Below are positions 2,575 to 56,478 of a stretch of DNA of 64,000 nt, piece after piece. The first letter of the stretch is position 1. Each line of letters begins with the position of its first letter. The DNA is from a virus. Lineage: Duplodnaviria > Caudoviricetes. The translations under genes were made by a program, and so were the position numbers. Under the pieces are notes generated by a model that did not search any database, was not told where the DNA came from, and saw nothing but the letters and a program-made list of their open reading frames with translations. The DNA is taken from positions 2,131 through 66,130 of IMG/VR virus record IMGVR_UViG_3300044630_000280. One strand, written 5' to 3'.

Positions 2575-3242
2575 CAGTGCCAGCTTGGTCTTACAGCAGT
2601 ATCAAAACTTTCGATCAATGCCCTAAGAAGTACTATCACTTACGGATACTCAAAGATGTCAAAGATTCGGATACGACTGCGACAGTCTATGGTAAGGAGC
2701 TTCACACAGCAGCGGAGTTGTACATACGTGATGGTGTAGAGATACCCCCTAAGTTCAGCTTTATTAAGACGACACTTGAGGCTCTTAACAAGATCGAGGG
2801 TGAGAAGCACTGTGAGATTAAGCTAGGTGTAGCAAAGAAGGACGGAGAGTTCACACCATGTGAGTTCTTTGACGAAGATGTATGGTGGCGAGGTATAGCT
2901 GACTTACTTATTATTCAAGGTGAGAAGGCTTTCCTAGTAGATTATAAAACTAGTAAGAATGCGAAGTACGCAGATACTAAACAGCTAGACTTGCTTGCAG
3001 GTGCAGTGTTCACGCACTACCCTCAGGTCAAAACCATAAAGTCGGCACTACTATTCGTAGTAAGTAACGAGGTGGTACAGAAAGAGCATGATGCTTTATT
3101 TAGAACCGCCTATCTATCAGCGATGCAACCAGAGCTAACAAGACTGGAAGCCGCTATTAATAACGATGTATGGAACACTAATTCTGGTCCGCTATGTAAG
3201 TACTGCCCAGTCGTAGAGTGTCCGCATAATAGAAGAGGTTAA
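2571..3242 (+). CDS. PD-(D/E)XK exonuclease (Cas4/RecB-like, Fe-S cysteines)
   Basis: WSYSS...CP, G..LH, GIADLL, VDYKT, QL, C-terminal CxxCPxxxC. Confidence 0.88.
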   Translation: MTVPAWSYSSIKTFDQCPKKYYHLRILKDVKDSDTTATVYGKELHTAAELYIRDGVEIPPKFSFIKTTLEALNKIEGEKHCEIKLGVAKKDGEFTPCEFFDEDVWWRGIADLLIIQGEKAFLVDYKTSKNAKYADTKQLDLLAGAVFTHYPQVKTIKSALLFVVSNEVVQKEHDALFRTAYLSAMQPELTRLEAAINNDVWNTNSGPLCKYCPVVECPHNRRG

Positions 3243-9806: not shown

Positions 9807-9886
9807 AACGGCTTTTAGTTAGCTCCTTTTAGTCGTTTATTCTCCTTCACAGAGAACTTTGCCCCCGGTACGTCCGGGGGTTTTTT
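9807..9886 (+). ncRNA. Candidate anti-RBS small RNA (three hairpins)
   Basis: TATACT at 9794-9799; stem AACGGCT/AGTCGTT (9807-9813/9831-9837) with loop containing GTTAGCTCCTTTT; second hairpin TTCTC/GAGAA; terminator hairpin. Confidence 0.65.
9861..9886 (+). terminator. Rho-independent terminator at the convergence of the replication and structural blocks
   Basis: GCCCCCGG-TACGT-CCGGGGGT then T-tract. Confidence 0.85.
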
Positions 9887-12800
9887 ATTGGGACTCTTCG
9901 TCCAACAATTTTTCAGTACGATCTTGTAGGTCAAGCAAGTCTGCAAACTTCAACTCTGGTGTGATACCTCTAACGTTACCCTGAAGTAGTTTCAAGCGGC
10001 GTTCAAAAGCTCTTTCTATATCTGCAAACTCTATGGTTAGCTCAGGGTTAGGGTACATAGAATTAAACCGTACAGCTTTATCAATCATAGCTTGGAAGCG
10101 TTCATCTTTATCTAACTCAGCAGAACGTTCAATCTGTTTAATAATATCCGCACGTTGAGTTGTAATTTTTTGCTTCGCGTTGTTGTATGCAAATATATCT
10201 TTTTGGCGCTCGGCAAGACCTTTAGTCTTATACCCCAGTGCTTGCATTGCTAACTGCGCCTTAGTAAACTCAGCAGCTTCTTTAATAATTTGCAAGCTAC
10301 CAGTACGTGCGCCCTCTTGTGTATACCTAACGTCAGTCAATAGACCACGGAACATAGCAGGTGTCCACTTCTCAAATGCTTTAACCCAATCACCATTCTG
10401 GGCATCTTTAACACCCTTAGCCCACGTATCTACCAACCCTACTGAAGCACCGCCCCAATCAACCAGAGTATCAGCTACAAAGTTACCCCAATCTGAAGGT
10501 GGAGATTCATCGGTAAACCAGAAGTCCATAGATAAGCTAGAAGATATATCGTAGCCAGTTAAGTTATCTATAGTACCCGTCAACATCAGTTCACTTAGTG
10601 GAACCCCGCCAATCGTAGGTTCGCCAAACATTTCAGGCAGCCACACGTTCTCAAAGTACTTCTTAAAATTAGTCTGCCACAACTCCAACTCATCATCGTC
10701 ATCACCAGCCATACGAATCAGATTAATCATGCCTTGTATAATACCCATGACTACGCTATACATAAACGTTCCACGGATACCAGTAAGTAACGCAGTCATA
10801 CCTAACGTACCAGTAAACGCCTTTAATGCACCCATGCGTTGTTCTTTAGGTAGGCTGCTGAAAATCTCCATGAAGTTACGACATAAAAACTCTACGTTAA
10901 ATACTTGGAACTTACGATACTGAGCCGCTACTCTAACGGGTGTACTACGCATTAATTCAGGAGTATTAGCATCACTGTAGTCAAACAAACTTTCTTTGGT
11001 GATTTCAAGGGCTAAGTCAATAGACTTATTTACACGTTTGTTGTGATCTGGTTCGCTTTTAAACTTATCCATTGCGAGACTAAACGCAGACATAAACGTA
11101 ATCTCACGGGACATACGCTCGCCAAAATGGAACGGCGCAGTCATAAGAGTTTCTACAGTGCTTATTACTGGTGAATAATTCTCGCTAGCTGTTTTCTTTC
11201 TATTAGCTAAGTCCATAGTTCTAGTAGCATCTTGGACACCACTCTCACGTAAAGCCCTAAACGCTCTAACTAAGTCTGGGTTGTTACGTACTATTGATGA
11301 CGAACCAATAGATGGAGCTGTGTAGATAACGTTACCCTTAGCATCTTTACTAGTAACCCCCACCTGCTTATACGCATCTCTTGCCATCCGCATCATTTCA
11401 GCCGTGGTCTTACCGTAGCCAAAGTGTTTCCACATGACAGGCATTGCGTGGGTAATAACGCTGAACTGTTGGGCTACAGCCGATTTAATACTTGTCATCT
11501 GCCATATAAAGGCACTCTTAGTCGCTGTGCGGGCTATCTTTTCTGCTACGGTATCCATCTCTGGAGGGTTAAGTTCTTCCTCAGCACGTGCGGCTATACG
11601 GTTTATGAACATCTCCATCCGTGCTTTATTTGGGTTCTTCTCAATAGAAGCTCTAGCACCACTAATACCATTACGAATCTTAGGCGCATACTTAATATTA
11701 GCTAGTTGGTTTGCAAACCGGTTACCCATCACGATAAAGTTACGCATAGCATCTCTGCTGTAACCAGCTGTATTTTGACGTGGCATGAACTGCTTACGGA
11801 ATGTACCTTCAGGCATAGCTACCAAGTGCATGGTAAATATGTCTTTCTTTATTTCTTCTTTAGTAGCGGTATCCGTTGCAGTAATACCATCAACCATAGT
11901 GAATAGCTTCTTTAAAATCTCACTAGACTGCATAGCTTCTCTTTGTAGAGACTGCATATCTTGACCAAGCTTGATGTCACCATCTTTAATCATTTGGTCT
12001 TTTGTACGGCGATCACCTTTCATGTTCTGTTCTTTGACATACTCATCCATTAAGAAGTCACGCTCTTGCCCCGCCTCACGCATAATAAACTGCTTGTTCT
12101 CACCCTTACCTAACGTAGCCCAGTATTTACCATAACGCATAATAGGGAAGTAAGGAGATAACTTAGCACCAGTCTCGTAAAGTTTACGTACTTCATCCAT
12201 CAACATCTGCTTAGCAGGCCCAGTTATATTTGCATTTGCAATACGCTGGTTTAATAACCCACGATACAGGTTATAGTGATCGGTATAGAAGTCACGTGCG
12301 TCTATGTATACTTGTTTAGCTTTGTCAGACAAGCTATTCCACACAGCATTTAGTTTAGCGTCAGACTTATTAACTGCTGGGTCAACCTGCGCCATAGTGG
12401 ATACGTGCATTAGATCAGATACGCGTTGTGATTCTTTACCCTTAAGCTTAACCCAACCACGGACTATATCTTCTACTTTATGGATAGTACGCATACGGAA
12501 GGCGTTCTTTTCTTCGATGCCTTTTTGTATATCGTTAATTGAGTCTTCACCTACACCAATTTCTTTTGCTATACGGTATAAGCGGTTAGTTGTAGAAGCA
12601 CGAAGCATTACATCCAGTTTTTCTGGGTTCATGTACTTCCACTTAAGCTTAATGTAATCACTCCACAGGCTAGGATCACGTGCTACTTTGGATAAAGAAC
12701 CAAGAGCGTTAAGTCTTTCTTCTGCTGTTTTACCGGCTTTTAATTTATCTATAGCTGTATCAACATCGGTTTTCTTTGACTTAGCTTTTTGTCTTAGGGC

Positions 12801-15800
12801 TGTATCAGCCATACTTAATAGCTGTTTACCACTAGGTTCTTTTGCCCCCATTATTTCGTGAGAGATAAGCACTAAATCTTTTAGACCAGACTGCACCTTA
12901 GGGTCAATACCAAACAGCTTTAATAGGATGTCAACGAACGTATCAAACCCAGAAGTCTTAGTTGTTGTGCCGGGAACTTTAGTAAGGAGAAACTCCTTCA
13001 TTGTTGGGTCAGTCAGACCGTAAGCATAGAACTCTTGGATGTCTGTGAACGCACCAGCTTTGTTTAAGTGATTAAGTTTAAAGTTACGCTCACCACGTGG
13101 CAGTGCATCAAATGCAGCCTTAGCTTTTTCCATCAACATCTGTAACTCAGCAACTGCCGATGCTAGCTTAGGCTCTACTGGCTGCCCTTGTTCTATGGCT
13201 AACTGCGCAAATGCAATCTTCTTAGACCCTGTAGCGTGCATAGCCTCATGCAAAACAATCTCAGAGTTTATACCTTGTTCATTCTCCCCATAGCTTTCAC
13301 CACGGACATAGACCATATTGTCTTTGGAGGTAGGCACAAAATACCCAACTGCGTCACTATCTAACTCAGACTTAATATCTGATGGGATGTCTTTATCATC
13401 TGACTCTACAACACGGAACCCAACAGTATTAACGGTACCTAAGTTATCAGGCTGCAACAACCTAGCCGCTAGCATTTGTTCTATCGGGTTAGCAGAACTG
13501 AGTACATGTAGCAAAGCATCTTTAAGGGTTTTAAATTTCTTAAATATTGGATCAGGTTGCATGTCTAGCTGTTGTTCAGCTTCATACGGTGTTTGCTCTG
13601 TTACTTCTGCTTTTACTGTACTGCGTGCAGCTTGTGGTTTTAACGCCGCAGCTTTTCTAGATTCGTAAACATTCTTTGCACGTGCTAGCTCCGCAGGTTT
13701 GAGTCCACGTATGTAGTCCTTAGCTAATACATAGCCAGTCTGTGGATTCTTAGATTGTGCTAGGCGGTATAACTCAGCACGCATTTGTTCAAGCTTATTT
13801 ACACGTTGCTCTTCTTTTGCATCAAGTTCTTCTTGTGTCGCAAACGTACCAAACTCTTGGCGCTGAGCAAATTTATTAGCTACATTTATTAGAGTCTTAA
13901 CATCACGGGTAAACTGATTGATCTCGTTTACTTGTTGACGACGTTCTTCTGTTGTCTTAGCAGTTTCAGACTTCTTACGACCGCCACCCGGCGCACGCTT
14001 CTTTACTTCCCTATCTACCGCTGCCTCTGACTTAGCAACTGATGTAACTTCAGGAGGCTCAACTTCAAGCTCTTCATTACGTGTAGACTCTAACTCGAGT
14101 GGAGCTGGTTCTGTTTTACTAGACGGTGTTAACGCAGCTATAGTCGCATCAACATCTTGGTCTAATGCAGATTTTATATTTATTAAAGCAGCAGAACTTA
14201 ACTTTGCACGGATTTCTTCAGGTATATTATTTACGGTTATAGTTCTTCCTGAGTCTTTAAGGAACTGTAAATCCCCCTGTAACTCTAAACGTTCGGCATC
14301 AGGTAACTCAAACCACCCACCCCTAGCTGTTTGTTCTACTTCTTTTTTATTTACTGCGGGTGCGGCTGGCTTGGGTGCTTCTTGTCTTTCTTCTTTTGCT
14401 TCGACGGCTTTAGGGGTTTCAGCGACACGTGGTGTTTCCTTTGCAGGTTGTGAAAATTCTGGTGCTCTACCATTCAGTTCTTCTAGACGAGCATAAGCAG
14501 CATCTTGGTATTCTTCAGGTGTTGGGTTTCTTGCTAATGTTTGACGTACCCAATCAGCCCCAAGTTGTACACCTAAGTCTGGGTACGCTTCACGATTAAA
14601 CGCTTGAGATACTTGAGATTGAACACGTTGTTTATTAGCATCTAATGAATCTTGCTCTCGCTCATCTCTTGAATCAAACTGTCCAACCAATCTCCGACTT
14701 GCATCCAATCCTCTAGCGATAGGTCCGCTAGTTCCTCCGGCGGGTAACTGTTGTTCGCTAGGCAATCCATCGCCATACTGATCTGTGCTAGGCTGAGTGA
14801 CAAAAGCTGGCGGCTCGGTAGTAACATTATCACCTCCTAAAATTTGTTGTTCCGCACGTTCGGCTTTCCCTTCTACAGTGCGTTGTTCATCTTCAGCTAC
14901 ATCTCTTTCTAATACTCTACCTACACGACCTACATTGCTATCCTTAAGCATTTGCTCCGCAAGCATCTGAGCATCATCCTCAGCAAACCCTTTAACCATA
15001 AAGTCTTGAGTCAGTGCTGTTAATTGTTCAGGGTCAATAGGTGTAGGTTCTGCGGCTTTTGGCGCTGTTGGCTGCGCTTGTGCTTGTGCCGCCGTCATTG
15101 CAGGTATTACTAATGTGGTTCCAGCTTCACCAGTCTTAGCTAGGGTCTTAATTAACCCACGTATATCTTTACCATGCGCACGAACTTCATCCTCTGACAT
15201 GCCAGTATTTTGCATAACAAAGTTGAGGTAGTCCGCATCGCGTTTAGATGGGTTAGGCTGCGCAGCAATATAAGCAGCACGATCAATATCGCTTTCAAAC
15301 TTTAGTTCAAACCCTTTGTCACCATAAGAATAACGAGGTTTCGCCCCAGCTAAATCTTTTGGTAGTGTTGCAGTCGGTGTTACAGGGGGTTCTGTTTCAA
15401 TACCTTCGTTACGTGCACTCTGTAAAGCCGCCAAAGGATCGACAGGTGTAGGGGCTGGAGGCTCAGTTTCTATTGCTTCGTTACGTGTTTTCTCTAGCGC
15501 TAAGTTAGTAGGTGGAGCAGGAGTTTGTGTTATAGCCCCAAGTGTTGCATCTTGGTCTGCTCTGCCAGTATAACGTTCACTATCTGGTGTTAAAGGCCCT
15601 ACCTCTACAGTACCTTCTTGTTCGTCTAAACCTTTAGTATTACTTAGTGTTTCTTTTATTCTATTTAGATCAGGTACTTCTTCTTTTTTACCCGCAAATT
15701 TACCAGTTAGAGCGCCAACACCCTTAGTGCCTGCAGTCATCATGCCGCTTTGCATCAGCGTCTGAACTGTGGTGTCTGCCATCTGCTCTAGGTAATCCCC

Positions 15801-17027
15801 GAGCGTAGCATCTTTGTTCAATCCAATAGCCGACTTATCAACGGCAAACTGCCCCGTAGTAGTAAAGTATTCGCCGGGTAGTTCTTTCTTGAGTGTGTTA
15901 CCTAAGAAGTCTTTAAGCTGGCTAGTTGGTACACCTTGTGTAGCTCTGCGGATTTGATCTAACTCAAACTTCAAACCTAAGCGTTCACCAGCAACTTCAA
16001 AGCTAGCAAACAAGCCAGCACGTGATGCAGCATCAGCACCATCTAAACCCTTAGCCCTACCCTCTGCGTACTCTTGACCAAACGAGTTTACAAACATGCT
16101 GCTAAGTACTAATGCTGAACTACCAGTCATAGCACCGCCAACCATAGCAGGTAACTGCTGAGCAATAGAACTAATAGCCCCTTCAGCCATACGACCTAGA
16201 TACTGTTTGTTCTGCCCCATTGATTGGATTTGATTGCGGGACTCAGCGGCTCTCTTAGCAAACCCTGCAGCGTATTCATCTGCACCTACTAAGTCAGAGA
16301 TAGCTTGGTTAACACCAACTGCACCTTGAATATAACCTTCCAATGCAGCTTTAGCACCACGCATACCTAGCGAAGCGTTCTCATATTTTTTCTGAGTTTC
16401 AAAATCAAACTGGCTAGGTTCTGCTACACCTTGCTGTGACATGAACTTAGACTCACCACCCGGGGCTACACCTGCTTCTGCTGCTTGTTCTGCAGCTACT
16501 GCGGCAAACTCAGGCTTCTCACCTTTAGCAATTAACTCGCGCTCACGGGCTTCTTTACGAGGGTCAAACTTTTCTAATGCTTGGTTTTGTGGTTTTGCAT
16601 AACGCTCAGCACGTTCACGGGCTATATCACCTATGACACCGGGTTGTCTTTCAAGTACTGCACGACGTGCGGGGGATGCAGCGTCATAGCTCTGTTGAAT
16701 ACTACGACGTACCTCTGGTTTAACTGGGAGAGTTGAAGTCTTATCTGGAGTGCCTTTGAACCCAGTCATCACACTACGTTCAGGTCCAGCTACCTCCATG
16801 ATAGATGAACCAAGATCACCACCCATAGCATCAGAGGTGGCGAAGTCTTCAGTAGGCTTAGCTTCTTTTTTAGCAGCTGCCTTAGATTCTGCTTTAGCTT
16901 CTTGCTTTGCCGCAGCTGGTTTTACAGACGGTAGAATATCAGTTTCGATAGCCTTAATAATATCTTCTTGTGACATATCGTCAGGAAAATTAACCTGACC
17001 TACACCCTCTACGTTTACACGTGGCAT
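9885..17027 (-). CDS. Giant (2380 aa) internal virion/ejection polyvalent protein with zincin-like HEXXH motif
   Basis: Last gene of the structural operon; VLHEAMHA...QEFYAYG; low-complexity linkers and hydrophobic segments. Confidence 0.75.
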   Translation of the reverse strand: MPRVNVEGVGQVNFPDDMSQEDIIKAIETDILPSVKPAAAKQEAKAESKAAAKKEAKPTEDFATSDAMGGDLGSSIMEVAGPERSVMTGFKGTPDKTSTLPVKPEVRRSIQQSYDAASPARRAVLERQPGVIGDIARERAERYAKPQNQALEKFDPRKEARERELIAKGEKPEFAAVAAEQAAEAGVAPGGESKFMSQQGVAEPSQFDFETQKKYENASLGMRGAKAALEGYIQGAVGVNQAISDLVGADEYAAGFAKRAAESRNQIQSMGQNKQYLGRMAEGAISSIAQQLPAMVGGAMTGSSALVLSSMFVNSFGQEYAEGRAKGLDGADAASRAGLFASFEVAGERLGLKFELDQIRRATQGVPTSQLKDFLGNTLKKELPGEYFTTTGQFAVDKSAIGLNKDATLGDYLEQMADTTVQTLMQSGMMTAGTKGVGALTGKFAGKKEEVPDLNRIKETLSNTKGLDEQEGTVEVGPLTPDSERYTGRADQDATLGAITQTPAPPTNLALEKTRNEAIETEPPAPTPVDPLAALQSARNEGIETEPPVTPTATLPKDLAGAKPRYSYGDKGFELKFESDIDRAAYIAAQPNPSKRDADYLNFVMQNTGMSEDEVRAHGKDIRGLIKTLAKTGEAGTTLVIPAMTAAQAQAQPTAPKAAEPTPIDPEQLTALTQDFMVKGFAEDDAQMLAEQMLKDSNVGRVGRVLERDVAEDEQRTVEGKAERAEQQILGGDNVTTEPPAFVTQPSTDQYGDGLPSEQQLPAGGTSGPIARGLDASRRLVGQFDSRDEREQDSLDANKQRVQSQVSQAFNREAYPDLGVQLGADWVRQTLARNPTPEEYQDAAYARLEELNGRAPEFSQPAKETPRVAETPKAVEAKEERQEAPKPAAPAVNKKEVEQTARGGWFELPDAERLELQGDLQFLKDSGRTITVNNIPEEIRAKLSSAALINIKSALDQDVDATIAALTPSSKTEPAPLELESTRNEELEVEPPEVTSVAKSEAAVDREVKKRAPGGGRKKSETAKTTEERRQQVNEINQFTRDVKTLINVANKFAQRQEFGTFATQEELDAKEEQRVNKLEQMRAELYRLAQSKNPQTGYVLAKDYIRGLKPAELARAKNVYESRKAAALKPQAARSTVKAEVTEQTPYEAEQQLDMQPDPIFKKFKTLKDALLHVLSSANPIEQMLAARLLQPDNLGTVNTVGFRVVESDDKDIPSDIKSELDSDAVGYFVPTSKDNMVYVRGESYGENEQGINSEIVLHEAMHATGSKKIAFAQLAIEQGQPVEPKLASAVAELQMLMEKAKAAFDALPRGERNFKLNHLNKAGAFTDIQEFYAYGLTDPTMKEFLLTKVPGTTTKTSGFDTFVDILLKLFGIDPKVQSGLKDLVLISHEIMGAKEPSGKQLLSMADTALRQKAKSKKTDVDTAIDKLKAGKTAEERLNALGSLSKVARDPSLWSDYIKLKWKYMNPEKLDVMLRASTTNRLYRIAKEIGVGEDSINDIQKGIEEKNAFRMRTIHKVEDIVRGWVKLKGKESQRVSDLMHVSTMAQVDPAVNKSDAKLNAVWNSLSDKAKQVYIDARDFYTDHYNLYRGLLNQRIANANITGPAKQMLMDEVRKLYETGAKLSPYFPIMRYGKYWATLGKGENKQFIMREAGQERDFLMDEYVKEQNMKGDRRTKDQMIKDGDIKLGQDMQSLQREAMQSSEILKKLFTMVDGITATDTATKEEIKKDIFTMHLVAMPEGTFRKQFMPRQNTAGYSRDAMRNFIVMGNRFANQLANIKYAPKIRNGISGARASIEKNPNKARMEMFINRIAARAEEELNPPEMDTVAEKIARTATKSAFIWQMTSIKSAVAQQFSVITHAMPVMWKHFGYGKTTAEMMRMARDAYKQVGVTSKDAKGNVIYTAPSIGSSSIVRNNPDLVRAFRALRESGVQDATRTMDLANRKKTASENYSPVISTVETLMTAPFHFGERMSREITFMSAFSLAMDKFKSEPDHNKRVNKSIDLALEITKESLFDYSDANTPELMRSTPVRVAAQYRKFQVFNVEFLCRNFMEIFSSLPKEQRMGALKAFTGTLGMTALLTGIRGTFMYSVVMGIIQGMINLIRMAGDDDDELELWQTNFKKYFENVWLPEMFGEPTIGGVPLSELMLTGTIDNLTGYDISSSLSMDFWFTDESPPSDWGNFVADTLVDWGGASVGLVDTWAKGVKDAQNGDWVKAFEKWTPAMFRGLLTDVRYTQEGARTGSLQIIKEAAEFTKAQLAMQALGYKTKGLAERQKDIFAYNNAKQKITTQRADIIKQIERSAELDKDERFQAMIDKAVRFNSMYPNPELTIEFADIERAFERRLKLLQGNVRGITPELKFADLLDLQDRTEKLLDEESQ

Positions 17028-53365: not shown

Positions 53366-53900
53366 CGCCTAACTCTTCATCCAAACTATCAGTCAGTGGG
53401 GTTACATCAATAACATTGGCATTAAGTAAGCGTTTGATGCGTTCTTTGATTGCCTCTTCCAATCCTTCGGAAGTTTTGTGATTAACCGTAATCTCACTTC
53501 GTTCAGTAAACAAGCCTATGTCACTGTGCTTACCTAACAACTCCAACGCCTTTAGCTCATACCTCGTGTCACCGCAGTTGGCGATTTCCAAAAGTTTAGC
53601 CGTGATAGCTGAGCGGACTTCATTGGCATCCGCAGCTAACTTATTAGCGTAGGTCTTCAAAAATAATGATGCAGCGAAAGCAGTCTCGGGGCGTTTGAAC
53701 TCCTTAACAGCTTTTCTAGACTTAAACAAATCAACTGTCTTGTCTAGGTCGGCAGTATCGATCTCAATAGAGGAACCTAGTTCTTTCAACAGATCAGCTG
53801 TGTTGGCAGCAACGACTACTTTGTCGTGGAAGGTTTTGGCCTCCTCGGGTTCTGTTGTGTAAGGGACCGGCTTTCCCTCTGTGGGTTCGATATTAACCAT
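53292..53900 (-). CDS. Terminase small subunit (putative)
   Basis: Precedes terL; LKALELLGKH..IGLFTER. Confidence 0.7.
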   Translation of the reverse strand: MVNIEPTEGKPVPYTTEPEEAKTFHDKVVVAANTADLLKELGSSIEIDTADLDKTVDLFKSRKAVKEFKRPETAFAASLFLKTYANKLAADANEVRSAITAKLLEIANCGDTRYELKALELLGKHSDIGLFTERSEITVNHKTSEGLEEAIKERIKRLLNANVIDVTPLTDSLDEELGVADPDPRLDPNPSTDDPDPETEPT

Positions 53901-53905
53901 GCCCG

Positions 53906-53936
53906 ATTATATAGCATAAATAATAATACGTGTCAA
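53906..53936 (-). promoter_or_regulatory. Late-operon promoter, TTGACA-19 bp-TATAAT, apparently leaderless
   Basis: Perfect hexamers with 19-bp spacer; ATG 5 nt after TATAAT; no SD. Confidence 0.6.
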
Positions 53937-53945
53937 AAACGATTT

Positions 53946-54124
53946 GGGACTCCTACCCGGGGGGTGTTTCTGGGAACGATGTTGCGTAAGGTTAGCAAAA
54001 AAAGTGAAGGGGGTGGGGGTATGTAAGACAATGTTAGGGAAGTTATGGGGAGTGGTATTGGCTGTGCAGATTAGGGTGTATGTAGAACGTGGGACTCCTT
54101 CCTGCCCATGTTGGGGGGTGGGGG
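53946..54124 (+). other. G-run-rich non-coding segment between divergent late and early blocks
   Basis: Eleven runs of 3-6 G; GGGACTCCT at 53946 and 54091. Confidence 0.55.
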
Positions 54125-54260
54125 TTAGCTATGCCACCAGCTTTGCTTCGTTATGCCATACCCTCAGTTGTGACTAACGATGTTGCCTTTGCTTTTGATG
54201 TTGTCTTTGCAGGCAAGCCCCGCAGGGAAATTTTGTTCTTATTATTGCTTGCGTATCTGT

Positions 54261-54289
54261 AAGACAATTAAGCCTTTATTTGATATAGT
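54261..54289 (+). promoter_or_regulatory. Early promoter candidate
   Basis: AAGACA-17 bp-TATAGT with extended TG; a TGTAAG box overlaps the -35. Confidence 0.5.
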
Positions 54290-54295
54290 AGATTC

Positions 54296-54740
54296 ATGGC
54301 AGCAAACAAGGCGAATCACCCGCTAGTGCATAGGTGATGTAGGGTTAGTCAGTACACCGAAATAGTACTGTCAGGCTAGCGGTTCTGTAATGGGGCAAAT
54401 TTAGGCTAGTGGATATAAAGAGTATCTAGCGAAACACAAGCGGCTTATTGTATAGGGTTGCGAGATAGTGGCTAGATAACATGATGCGTGTAGAAGTGAC
54501 AACAAGATCACCGGCTCATCAATTTATATCTTGTGAGGTGCATATATAGAGTGCATTGCCTTAGGGGTAATGTAGCAGGGCTTTGTATATCGTGCCAATA
54601 ATTAGCGGTTTAGAGCCGCGTTATTAAAATCACTACATTGACGTTATTTTCGGCTTGCTTAGCAGGTGAGCCGGATAACGGGATGAGTCAAGGCGCATTG
54701 TCTAGTTCTCATCCTCTTATCAATCAAATAACGTTAAGGA
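54296..54740 (+). ncRNA. Putative large structured leader/ncRNA
   Basis: At least 8 complementary stems of 6-9 bp in 450 nt lacking a credible ORF. Confidence 0.5.
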
Positions 54741-54748
54741 AAACTATC

Positions 54749-55243
54749 ATGACAGCAAATTTACTCACTAAGTCCGAAGTCACCGAGTTAGCTAAGTCCG
54801 TTGCAGGGCGCGGCAAGTCACTCAATCGTGACATTCAGAAACTTGCAGCAATGGCAATAGGTTACGCCAACATTCATGGCGATGTAACCGTTGCTCAAGA
54901 TATATATGCACAGTTATGTGTAAACAAGGCTTTGCGCTTAAAGTCATTCGTTGCCTATTTAGAAACACATGGCAAATTAGAGTATGACAAGTCAAGCAAG
55001 AATTTTATCTACCGTAGACGTGACGATGTAGAAACAGATGTAATGTCATTGTTTATCTCGTTGTCAGATTGTCTATGGTACGAAGCGCTTAAGGAAGCTG
55101 AGCCGGTGTCAATGTATGACTTGTCCGCTAAGATTGCAGCGCTCGTCAAGCAAGCCGAGAAAATGGCAGCGCAAGAATCGACAACCGTTGCTCACCTCGA
55201 ATTATTAGAGCCACTACGTAGCTTAGTAGTAGCAACCAACTAA
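54749..55243 (+). CDS. First early gene, hypothetical protein
   Basis: AAGGA RBS before ATG 54749; DIQ....HGDVT motif. Confidence 0.8.
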   Translation: MTANLLTKSEVTELAKSVAGRGKSLNRDIQKLAAMAIGYANIHGDVTVAQDIYAQLCVNKALRLKSFVAYLETHGKLEYDKSSKNFIYRRRDDVETDVMSLFISLSDCLWYEALKEAEPVSMYDLSAKIAALVKQAEKMAAQESTTVAHLELLEPLRSLVVATN

Positions 55244-55294
55244 GGCGAAACGGGCGCAAGCCCGTCTAACGGTCAAGCCGTTACTGATGAGCCT
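55243..55294 (+). ncRNA. Type II hammerhead ribozyme
   Basis: AGGC-GAAA-CGGGC(GCAA)GCCCG-TC^-TAACGG(TCAAG)CCGTTA-CTGATGA-GCCT; full catalytic core and three stems. Confidence 0.92.
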
Positions 55295-55308
55295 AAATCT
55301 AACAATGT

Positions 55309-55669
55309 CATACAATGTAAGGGAAAGTGTTGCTTTGTAAGAAACTTTTGGTTGCTTTGTAAGAATCTTACAATACAAAACTCCCTTTAGAATCAATGGG
55401 TTAGGCTTATATGCCATACAATGTAAGGTTGTAAGAACTTTTTTAGAGTGACTTTGGGAAATTGAAGTCGATCGAAGCATCTCGCAAGTCAAGATAAGCA
55501 CAAGCCTCACGAGGGCTTAATTTCTAAAATTCTCTTACATTATTACAATATAATAGATATAGTAGGTACACCAAGCTATAACCCGCATAAACACTAGGTT
55601 TTGCTTTGTAAGAAAAAGTTCTTACAATACCCCCCGATTTTCTTACAATCTTACAATACATTTCTTACA
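55309..55669. repeat. Cluster of 12 TGTAAG/CTTACA boxes (iteron/operator-like)
   Basis: TGTAAG at 55316, 55336, 55358, 55422, 55430, 55607; CTTACA at 55367, 55534, 55621, 55642, 55650, 55664. Confidence 0.8.
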
Positions 55670-55684
55670 TTACAAGGAGCTACT

Positions 55685-55849
55685 ATGAAAGCATCAGATA
55701 TTCTCATGCTAACCGGCACTATATTGCATGTCGTGTTCTTAGTATCAGTTATATTTTTTCCAATGCCATTATTCCCTGCCGCATTGCTTACTGTGTTAGG
55801 CATAGCGTATCAGGGCTATGGTGTCTTTATGTCCTACGAAGGGAGCTAA
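55685..55849 (+). CDS. Small membrane protein
   Basis: AAGGAG RBS; two hydrophobic segments. Confidence 0.65.
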   Translation: MKASDILMLTGTILHVVFLVSVIFFPMPLFPAALLTVLGIAYQGYGVFMSYEGS

Positions 55850-55851
55850 GC

Positions 55852-56016
55852 ATGATAACGGAAGAACTGTTTAAGCAATGGGTAGGACGTGAGCCACAAG
55901 ACGATGACCTTGATCGTTGCAATTGTAGTAAGGCGGGGCAAGCAGGGCATGGGCAATGCGGTTGGAATAATAAACAGAACTTACCTGTGTTCATGGTAGG
56001 TAGTGAGGAGGTGTGA
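55852..56016 (+). CDS. 54-aa hypothetical protein (not in ORF track)
   Basis: GGGAGCTAA RBS; MITEELFKQWVGREPQDDDLDRCNC..AG..GH.QCGW. Confidence 0.65.
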   Translation: MITEELFKQWVGREPQDDDLDRCNCSKAGQAGHGQCGWNNKQNLPVFMVGSEEV

Positions 56017-56017
56017 G

Positions 56018-56179
56018 ATGGGCGAACTATTAAACAAAGCATTCATCGATGAGCTAACCGATGAGGAAGAAGCGGTACTCGCAAGGTTAGAGCAAGAGTG
56101 GCTGCAAAGATGTGCACTCGCAGAGTCAACGGAATGGCATGACCCTAAACCTATTATCAAAGCAACATCACTTAACTAG
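56018..56179 (+). CDS. 53-aa hypothetical protein (not in ORF track)
   Basis: GAGGAGG RBS; fills the gap exactly. Confidence 0.55.
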   Translation: MGELLNKAFIDELTDEEEAVLARLEQEWLQRCALAESTEWHDPKPIIKATSLN

Positions 56180-56187
56180 GAGCTAAC

Positions 56188-56478
56188 ATGGGCTGGAGAT
56201 ATGGATTAAAGCGTGAGATGTGGGGCAACACAATCGAGGGTTACAAGGTGATAGAAGTGTTTGACTTTGACCGCCCTGCATTACAGCGTTCATGGTGTGA
56301 GACCGCACCGTATAGCGACACCGAAGATGAGATGTTGACTGTGCTTGACCGCATGAAGAAAGACATCCAACGTTTCAATATTGACATCAGCACACCCGAT
56401 GTGGTCGAGGACTTAGAGCGTAGGCTGTGGTGGTGGGACGATGCACCTGCCAAGATATACCCAAGCGAGGAGGTATGA
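56188..56478 (+). CDS. Hypothetical early protein
   Basis: AGGAGCTAAC RBS. Confidence 0.7.
   Translation: MGWRYGLKREMWGNTIEGYKVIEVFDFDRPALQRSWCETAPYSDTEDEMLTVLDRMKKDIQRFNIDISTPDVVEDLERRLWWWDDAPAKIYPSEEV

Follow-up and report, generated by a model that had tools for sequence, protein, structure and literature searches.

A type II hammerhead ribozyme at the stop codon of the first gene of a putative early module in an uncultivated tailed phage

The DNA analysed here, referred to as the window, comprises the 64,000 nucleotides (nt) at bases 2131–66130 of the 66,130-nt virus record IMGVR_UViG_3300044630_000280, which derives from an uncultivated tailed phage of approximately 66 kb. Leftward genes from 9885 to 53900 were assigned to structural and packaging functions and include those for the large terminase, the portal, tail fibre-like proteins and a 2,380-amino-acid protein. 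Rightward genes from 54749 encode small ORFans, an AAA ATPase and a DUF2201 protein, in a module that continues across the record ends with a DNA polymerase, exonuclease, helicase and primase. As the rightward genes begin at 54749, the gene at 54749–55243 (+ strand) is the first gene of this module. It encodes 164 amino acids (phrog_1448) from a probable ATG at 54749 that is preceded by AAGGAAAA, within an open reading frame (54638–55243) that ends with a TAA stop codon at 55241–55243. At this stop codon lies the element investigated in this study, a complete 52-nt type II hammerhead ribozyme (55243–55294, + strand). The module is presumably early, a label that fits the position of distant homologues of the 164-amino-acid protein (27–30% identical and hypothetical), which are found about 2 kb from one end of many podophage records of 40–43 kb.

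The order of the ribozyme elements is that of a type II hammerhead, in which stem II is open while stems I and III are capped, as judged from the sequence and the minimum-energy fold. The 5' strand of stem II (55243–55246) pairs with 55291–55294 in an open helix and is followed by the core GAAA (G12 A13 A14 A15.1; 55247–55250) and by the stem III hairpin (55250–55265), which has 6 base pairs (bp) including A15.1–U16.1 (A55250–U55265), a GC part at 55251–55264 and a GCAA loop. The cleavage triplet before stem I, of the form N-U-H, is GUC at 55264–55266. Its C17 at 55266 was assigned from the alignment position in Rfam and places the predicted cut at 55266/55267. The stem I hairpin (55267–55283; 6 bp plus a U–G closing pair and a 3-nt loop), the core CTGATGA (C3–A9; 55284–55290) and the 3' strand of stem II (55291–55294), all on the + strand, complete the structure. 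The canonical core of the hammerhead clan CL00010 is accordingly present in full, that is C3 U4 G5 A6 N7 G8 A9, G12 A13 A14 and the pairs A15.1–U16.1 and G10.1–C11.1 (55291/55246). The initial annotation of this DNA had described a complete type II hammerhead with each of these elements, cut after C55266 and fused to the stop codon of the first early gene. Sequence, the Rfam family RF02276, folding and covariation bear out the hammerhead and its predicted cut, and the fusion is literal in that the final A of the TAA codon, A55243, is the first base of stem II in the first gene of the rightward, early-like module.

A search with RF02276 (Hammerhead_II) matched 55243–55298 over all 66 model positions with 35.8 bits (E 7.8e-6, 351 nt searched), and when the whole 66,130-nt record was searched the ribozyme was the sole hit, with an E of 3.4e-7. 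The Rfam check proposed in the initial annotation thus returned a full-length match, at a score under the curated gathering cut-off of 37, and Rfam at gathering thresholds listed nothing anywhere in the window. The minimum-energy fold of a 71-nt segment was exactly the three-way junction, at -22.5 kcal/mol and a z-score of -2.96, with 3 of 200 shuffles folding as well, and the junction persisted when folded in a 251-nt context. A model of the wider hammerhead class described below, R1, scored the ribozyme at 71.2 bits, the window sequence having belonged to the training set of R1. With the filters of the class model turned off no second hammerhead or other ribozyme was found in the window, the next best score being 12.7 bits, and the hammerhead is the only one in the record.

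Comparative analysis was performed on the family of the 164-amino-acid protein. A total of 45 homologues were found in a large protein collection, and an alignment of 26 was used to retrieve 8 viral and 13 metagenome loci (given here by L numbers), of which L014 and L004 represent one and the same stretch of a contig. Counting the window there are 22 rows, 12 of them with a hammerhead directly 3' of the stop codon; among the 21 independent loci the number is 11. Ribozyme and gene were on one strand in all 12 rows, and the ribozyme start ranged from a 1-nt overlap with the stop codon to 14 nt past it. Of the 8 viral loci 4 carry the ribozyme, and RF02276 at E <= 1 recovered only 2 of these. The 12 rows contain 8 distinct ribozyme sequences, in which standard pairs occupy all 136 pair cells. 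Changes on both sides were observed in 8 of 17 pairs (4 in stem I and 2 each in stems II and III), and the compensatory swaps in stem II included G-C to A-U and A-U to G-C. The covariation score was reached by 0 of 500 shuffles, and slid registers paired in only 22–42% of cases. Stem III is longer in L006 and L007. In L011 and L012, the protein of which is 99% identical to that of the window, 9 of 17 stem I bases differ with all pairs kept, and in the close relative L002 the ribozyme is more conserved than the sequence just 3' of it. The single-stranded core is constant in the 8 distinct sequences save for position 7 (T or C), which is the only N position in the type II consensus line of Rfam. 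GUC is constant in 8 of 8 and so is GAAA, which is also constant in 76 of 76 sequences of the wider class, where it is fixed by the search pattern. As the core stays constant while the helices change by compensation, selection appears to act on catalysis and not merely on the fold. It is almost certain, judging from these patterns, that the element is a hammerhead ribozyme under selection, and it very probably cleaves in vivo.

The position occupied by the ribozyme was then compared with the same site in the 10 family loci without one. In 7 of these (L005, L008, L018, L019, L020, L021 and L023) a GC hairpin followed by a T-run is found 13–26 nt past the stop codon. GC hairpins without a good T-run are found in L010 and L022, and L009 has no callable hairpin or T-run element after the gene. 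None of the 12 ribozyme-bearing rows has a hairpin with a T-run within 100 nt. L005 and L006 differ by a clean absence versus presence of the ribozyme over about 65 nt, and a downstream hairpin common to both carries a T-run only in the ribozyme-less L005. Degenerate remnants of the ribozyme were sought with the class model in the 10 ribozyme-less loci and none was found at E <= 1. A maximum-likelihood tree of 21 proteins, rooted at the midpoint only and with L014 omitted as a duplicate, recovered a 13-row group, with a support of 89/96 (not starred), that takes in every one of the 11 independent ribozyme loci. This group also includes the ribozyme-less L005 and the long-branch L009, and the 8 rows outside of it are all without a ribozyme. 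The simplest reading of the tree is that the ribozyme was gained in one clade.

Since more distant relatives carry a hairpin and T-run at the same spot, the 3' end of the messenger RNA (mRNA) of the first gene is probably generated by the ribozyme. The kind of 3' end that is meant is suggested by L021–L023, in which the counterpart of the next gene of the window (55685–55849, + strand; 54 amino acids starting MKAS and a conserved downstream neighbour in the family) begins only about 10–25 nt from the hairpin. Downstream expression must in these loci pass through the hairpin, and the site would consequently be an inter-cistronic 3' end or an attenuation point rather than a full stop. Furthermore, the stem III 14-mers of two ribozyme subtypes were found letter-perfect in hairpins of L010 and of L019 and L020. 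Stem III may on this evidence descend from an old terminator hairpin, and the identity may equally be due to chance among GC hairpins with tetraloops.

A transcript that crosses the ribozyme probably starts at a sigma-70-like promoter at 54261–54289 (+ strand), which consists of AAGACA, a 17-nt spacer and TATAGT with TG before the -10. The -10 hexamer is kept in relatives, as TATAAT in L004, CATAAT in L005 and L006 and TACATT in L003. Between promoter and gene lies a conserved structured 5' leader of about 450 nt (54296–54748, + strand, ends approximate) in which invariant islands alternate with covarying segments. RNAalifold predicted 48 pairs for 54285–54500 from 7 sequences, 25 of them with compensatory changes. 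No Rfam family fitted the leader, and this conserved RNA may be more novel than the ribozyme. On account of the conserved promoter and the structured leader upstream, transcription through the gene and across the ribozyme is plausible.

We propose that the first early transcription unit is made up of the promoter near 54261–54289, the structured leader of about 450 nt and the 164-amino-acid gene, with the ribozyme as its 3' end. In the folded RNA the 2'-OH of C55266 would attack the next phosphate and the RNA would be cut 23 nt past the stop codon. The upstream product, of about 970 nt if transcription starts near 54296, would carry the GC-rich stem III hairpin and a 2',3'-cyclic phosphate at its 3' end, and the downstream product would start with a 5'-OH and the stem I hairpin, a terminal hairpin on each product being a consequence of the type II topology. 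The first-gene mRNA would by these means gain its own protected 3' end while the polymerase continues, and its fate would be uncoupled from that of the read-through RNA that enters the operator/promoter region and the next genes. The ribozyme would in this respect be a host-factor-free counterpart of the hairpin and T-run found at the same place in distant relatives. A probability of roughly 55% is given to the reading that a functional hammerhead ends the first early unit, gives its mRNA a 3' end of its own and uncouples the RNA downstream. This reading starts out from the motif, fold, covariation, position and comparative replacement at the locus, and from these we infer transcription across the site, cleavage in vivo and the effects of the ribozyme on mRNA stability and expression. 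The initial annotation had likewise suggested that self-cleavage separates the leader and first-gene RNA from the downstream early mRNA. This part of it is plausible in view of the shared strand in 12 of 12 rows, the conserved promoter and the hairpins in relatives.

A number of observations weigh against the ribozyme acting as the 3' end of the first unit. The RF02276 score lies 1.2 bits under the gathering cut-off, which is a curated threshold and not a biochemical criterion; the RF02276 alignment places the shortfall in the 3' tail and pseudoknot positions, which the hammerhead class of the window is without. RF02276 at E <= 1 also matched in 6 of 14 control genomes, none above the cut-off; such sub-threshold hits are common, and the hit in the window is six orders of magnitude stronger. 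According to the available text of Perreault et al. 2011 (PMC3088659), most, but not all, type II hammerheads form a pseudoknot of at least 4 bp between loop I and the 3' tail which is needed for fast cleavage at low Mg2+, and many hammerheads use other tertiary contacts or none. No such pseudoknot was found by eye in the window and its relatives, where a loop I of 3–5 nt was compared with both flanks and no dedicated pseudoknot search was run, and the flanks of the 8 distinct sequences, also read by eye, showed no consistent stem II extension or pseudoknot. Unless the RNA makes some other tertiary contact, it could consequently cleave only slowly. L016 and L017 carry a strong terminator about 100 nt downstream in addition to the ribozyme, so the ribozyme is not a simple substitute for a terminator, and the terminator calls were made by a simple script and not by a trained predictor. 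The next gene lies 390 nt from the ribozyme and has promoter-like sites of its own (55534–55563 and 55621–55649), for which reason uncoupling may matter less than protection of the 3' end. Finally, a search for sequencing runs that contain 54300–55800 gave no RNA run among the matches listed.

The sub-threshold score and the missing tertiary pseudoknot would also be expected of a chance match or of an inactive relic kept merely as a stable RNA structure. The core bases are, however, constant in 8 diverged sequences while the helices compensate, which argues for selection on catalysis, and the E of 3.4e-7 over the whole record makes a chance match hard to sustain. We regard this explanation as highly improbable.

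In order to place the ribozyme among other phage hammerheads, a pattern of the core motifs and the first two stem I pairs was run against a viral contig collection. At least 122 stretches matched, and 80 loci (L024–L103) were retrieved; the counts for this class that follow are among the matches listed, and open frames were taken from stop to stop and not from gene calls. The 80 loci contain 92 pattern matches, of which 89 form all three stems, with stem II exactly 4 bp in 71. In an alignment of 76 class sequences stems I and III pair in 97.5–99.8% of cells, the pairing of stem II being imposed by the selection, and the first base of loop I is T in at least 90%. The RF02276 cut-off was reached by 2 of 25 pattern matches in 20 viral loci, with 4 more at E <= 0.1, which suggests that most phage hammerheads of this 4-bp-stem-II class escape standard annotation by Rfam. 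In 11 of the 89 hammerheads (among them those in L025, L028, L031, L036, L038, L044 and L054) the reverse complement of the core CTGAYG was observed right after stem II, covarying with Y. This sequence, which the window does not have, could give rise to an alternative hairpin in which the catalytic core is hidden, acting as an off state or as a post-cleavage lock. In addition, L027:275-344 weakly matched the hepatitis delta virus (HDV)-like family RF02682 (36.8 bits, cut-off 44), about 350 nt upstream of the hammerhead of that contig.

An upstream open frame of at least 60 codons on the same strand was found for 83 of the 89 hammerheads, and in 57 of the 83 (69%) the ribozyme starts within -3 to +5 nt of the upstream stop codon, compared with 4.0% of 2,568 random positions in the same loci. 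The commonest spacing is the 1-nt overlap also seen in the window (19 of 83); gaps of 2 nt (12) and of 0 nt (7) come next. An A precedes the 4-bp stem II in 67 of 71 cases and follows it in 52 of 71. A PHROG match at E <= 1e-5 was obtained for 10 of the 57 abutting upstream frames; most are small ORFans, the reality of which rests on positional statistics. These counts suggest that tight stop-codon abutment is a general property of the 4-bp-stem-II class, and compaction of phage genomes accounts for part of it.

Abutment of this kind might be taken to indicate a switch coupled to translation. With its A55242 serving as the conserved A beside stem II and its A55243 lying within stem II, the stop codon is part of the ribozyme. 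A ribosome that terminates here would consequently unfold the ribozyme, and the translation state of the gene would either be reported by cleavage or control it. The 1-nt overlap of stop codon and stem II as the commonest arrangement in the class, the A before stem II in nearly all cases and the persistence of tight abutment in roomy intergenic regions are in line with this. The abutment is, however, inexact, with gaps of 0–14 nt within the gene family, and compaction together with a ribozyme start of A-R, which is compatible with TAA or TAG, could yield the same pattern without any coupling. Coupling of this sort is considered improbable.

The class also bears on a second explanation, that the ribozyme mainly serves the RNA downstream of it, from which the leader and first gene would be stripped so that the RNA is left with a defined end of 5'-OH and stem I, the ribozyme acting as insulator and stabiliser. 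Across the class the median distance from the ribozyme to the start of the following open reading frame is 30 nt (n=83). The ribozyme would there define the 5' end of the next cistron, and the terminal hairpin that type II topology gives to each product would suit such a function. Where the intergenic slack exceeds 100 nt, however, 20 of 34 hammerheads lie within 5 nt of the upstream stop and 9 within 30 nt of the downstream start. The next gene in the window is moreover set 390 nt off, behind a weak hairpin and promoter-like sites, and need not depend on read-through. A mainly downstream function is hence rated as rather unlikely, although less so than coupling to translation, and the reading of the ribozyme as the 3' end of the first unit is preferred. 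Only tentatively, and with somewhat more confidence than is given to the downstream function, can the class as a whole be viewed as stop-codon-coupled and host-independent modules that end messages, one of which would here have replaced an ancestral intrinsic terminator and possibly recruited its hairpin as stem III. If this is true, ribozymes have been built onto the stop codon and translation termination and RNA cleavage are physically linked.

Downstream of the ribozyme a cluster of 12 TGTAAG/CTTACA sites in both orientations is contained in longer direct and inverted repeats at 55316–55669, so that 12 of the 41 sites in the window fall within 354 nt. The repeats, of 9–19 nt, overlap sigma-70-like hexamers. 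The TTGTAAGAA/TTCTTACAA sites of the cluster include two palindromes that are nearly perfect and a 19-nt unit present three times, and sites resembling the cluster are also present 3' of the gene in L004, L005, L013 and L015. The cluster probably represents operators and promoters for the next genes, the operators being those of a phage regulator. It encloses the weak hairpin mentioned above (55501–55519, + strand), a GC hairpin with an A/T-rich but T-poor run on its 3' side that was read by eye as a weak terminator candidate. The hairpin is identical in L002, and the scanner reported the 55501–55519 palindrome on the - strand only.

The initial annotation had raised the idea that cleavage creates a defined RNA end serving replication at an origin marked by the TGTAAG sites. 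In its favour, just 22 nt separate the ribozyme from the first site downstream of it, and the 12 sites of the cluster are densely packed into 354 nt. The chemistry of the ends argues against it, since the upstream product ends in a 2',3'-cyclic phosphate (PMC6765202, available text), from which extension by a polymerase is presumed impossible, and the downstream product offers only a 5'-OH at the cut. Adjacency to the cluster is not conserved either, as 83 extra nt lie between ribozyme and cluster in L011 and L012, a strong terminator separates the two in L016 and L017 and L005 has a cluster without a ribozyme. The sites themselves share bases with sigma-70-like hexamers and are arranged in inverted repeats of the kind seen in operators. 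The origin idea is consequently not supported, and it is the least probable of the explanations considered.

The close surroundings of the ribozyme vary among relatives. At L011:2051-2133 and L012:1132-1214 an insertion of 83 nt relative to the window, flanked by 5-nt direct repeats of AGCCT and holding a hairpin, follows right after the ribozyme. A perfect 14-nt palindrome, TGCAATATATTGCA, is located just 3' of the ribozyme in L003 (about 3052–3075) and just 5' of it in L013 (about 1057–1070), and this placement on opposite sides suggests that ribozyme and palindrome shuffle as separate small modules.

The 164-amino-acid protein belongs to phrog_1448, a family without functional annotation, and had no match to a Pfam family. 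An AlphaFold2 model built from 26 sequences reached a predicted local distance difference test (pLDDT) score of 75.6 and a predicted template modelling (pTM) score of 0.57. The predicted fold had no convincing match, the best values being an E of 0.54 in Foldseek and a Z of 5.3 in VIA-align. Several winged-helix regulators are among the weak Foldseek rows, and a role in DNA binding is only a hunch. The complete phages most similar in their large terminase are DSL-LC04, 023Pt_psg01 and the Pelagibacter phages HTVC027P and HTVC023P, at 51–59% identity. The class model found no hammerhead in these four, an empty result that proves little there, and a nucleotide search with 54300–56300 against cultured phages returned no match. 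Two further features of the window were noted. Non-coding DNA at 53900–54260, which separates the early promoter from the leftward packaging genes, is unusually G-rich, with several runs of 5–6 G, and may contain the genome ends or a packaging site. The 2,380-amino-acid protein (9885–17027, - strand) has a DarB-like antirestriction region (phrog_10089) and an LPD39 domain, is encoded among virion genes and is likely an ejected polyvalent protein.

The locus offers a natural comparison in which the same gene ends in either a hammerhead or a terminator-like hairpin, L005 and L006 differing by the presence of the ribozyme. This comparison makes it testable whether the ribozyme makes and protects an mRNA 3' end while transcription continues. 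The abutment of stop codons and the number of hammerheads missed by Rfam are furthermore of consequence for the annotation of phage genomes. A literature search, incomplete for subscription journals and supplements, found no statement that phage hammerheads abut stop codons or replace terminators.

Type II hammerheads of phages have been known since 2011, and the element in the window is a further example and not a new kind. In the available text of Perreault et al. 2011 (PMC3088659), bacteria are described as commonly having natural type II hammerheads, many of them close to prophage genes and within the intergenic regions of phages, and it is proposed that long phage transcripts are processed by them into mRNAs of gene length. 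In vivo cleavage has been shown for three type II hammerheads associated with prophages in Desulfovibrio vulgaris (Olzog et al. 2021, PMC8782182, available text), and the function of bacterial and phage hammerheads was called largely elusive in the accessible part of a 2019 review (PMC6765202). The end chemistry given above, a cyclic phosphate and a 5'-OH, is as described in the parts available of that review and of Olzog et al. The ribozyme in the window resembles the members of RF02276 in its core, cleavage triplet, permuted topology and setting between co-directional phage genes, and in the proposed cutting of long phage transcripts into gene-length mRNAs. It differs from the Rfam model, which has a 2-bp stem II and a pseudoknot, in its stem II of 4 bp with an A on both sides, and from the described type II hammerheads in being present as a single copy per genome and not as a cluster. 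A eukaryotic parallel is the discontinuous hammerhead in the 3' untranslated region of rodent CLEC2, which lowers expression by removing the poly(A) signal (PMC6765202, available text). It is likewise located between a stop codon and the signal for the mRNA 3' end, whereas the effect expected here is a protected end.

The intrinsic terminators of the orthologous gene are found at the same site, 13–26 nt past the stop codon, and in both cases the mRNA would end in a GC-rich hairpin. A terminator stops the polymerase, however, while the ribozyme would cut the RNA and allow transcription to continue, and no T-run follows stem III. The ribozyme would leave a cyclic phosphate where a terminator leaves a 3'-OH. 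In phage T7, RNase III cuts the early polycistronic transcript between cistrons, and the upstream mRNAs keep stabilising 3' hairpins. The proposed cut at the ribozyme is likewise intercistronic and in an early transcript, and distant homologues of the window gene are found near one end of T7-like and phiKMV-like genomes. The cut would here be made by the RNA itself and not by a host enzyme, and the chemistry of the resulting ends would differ.

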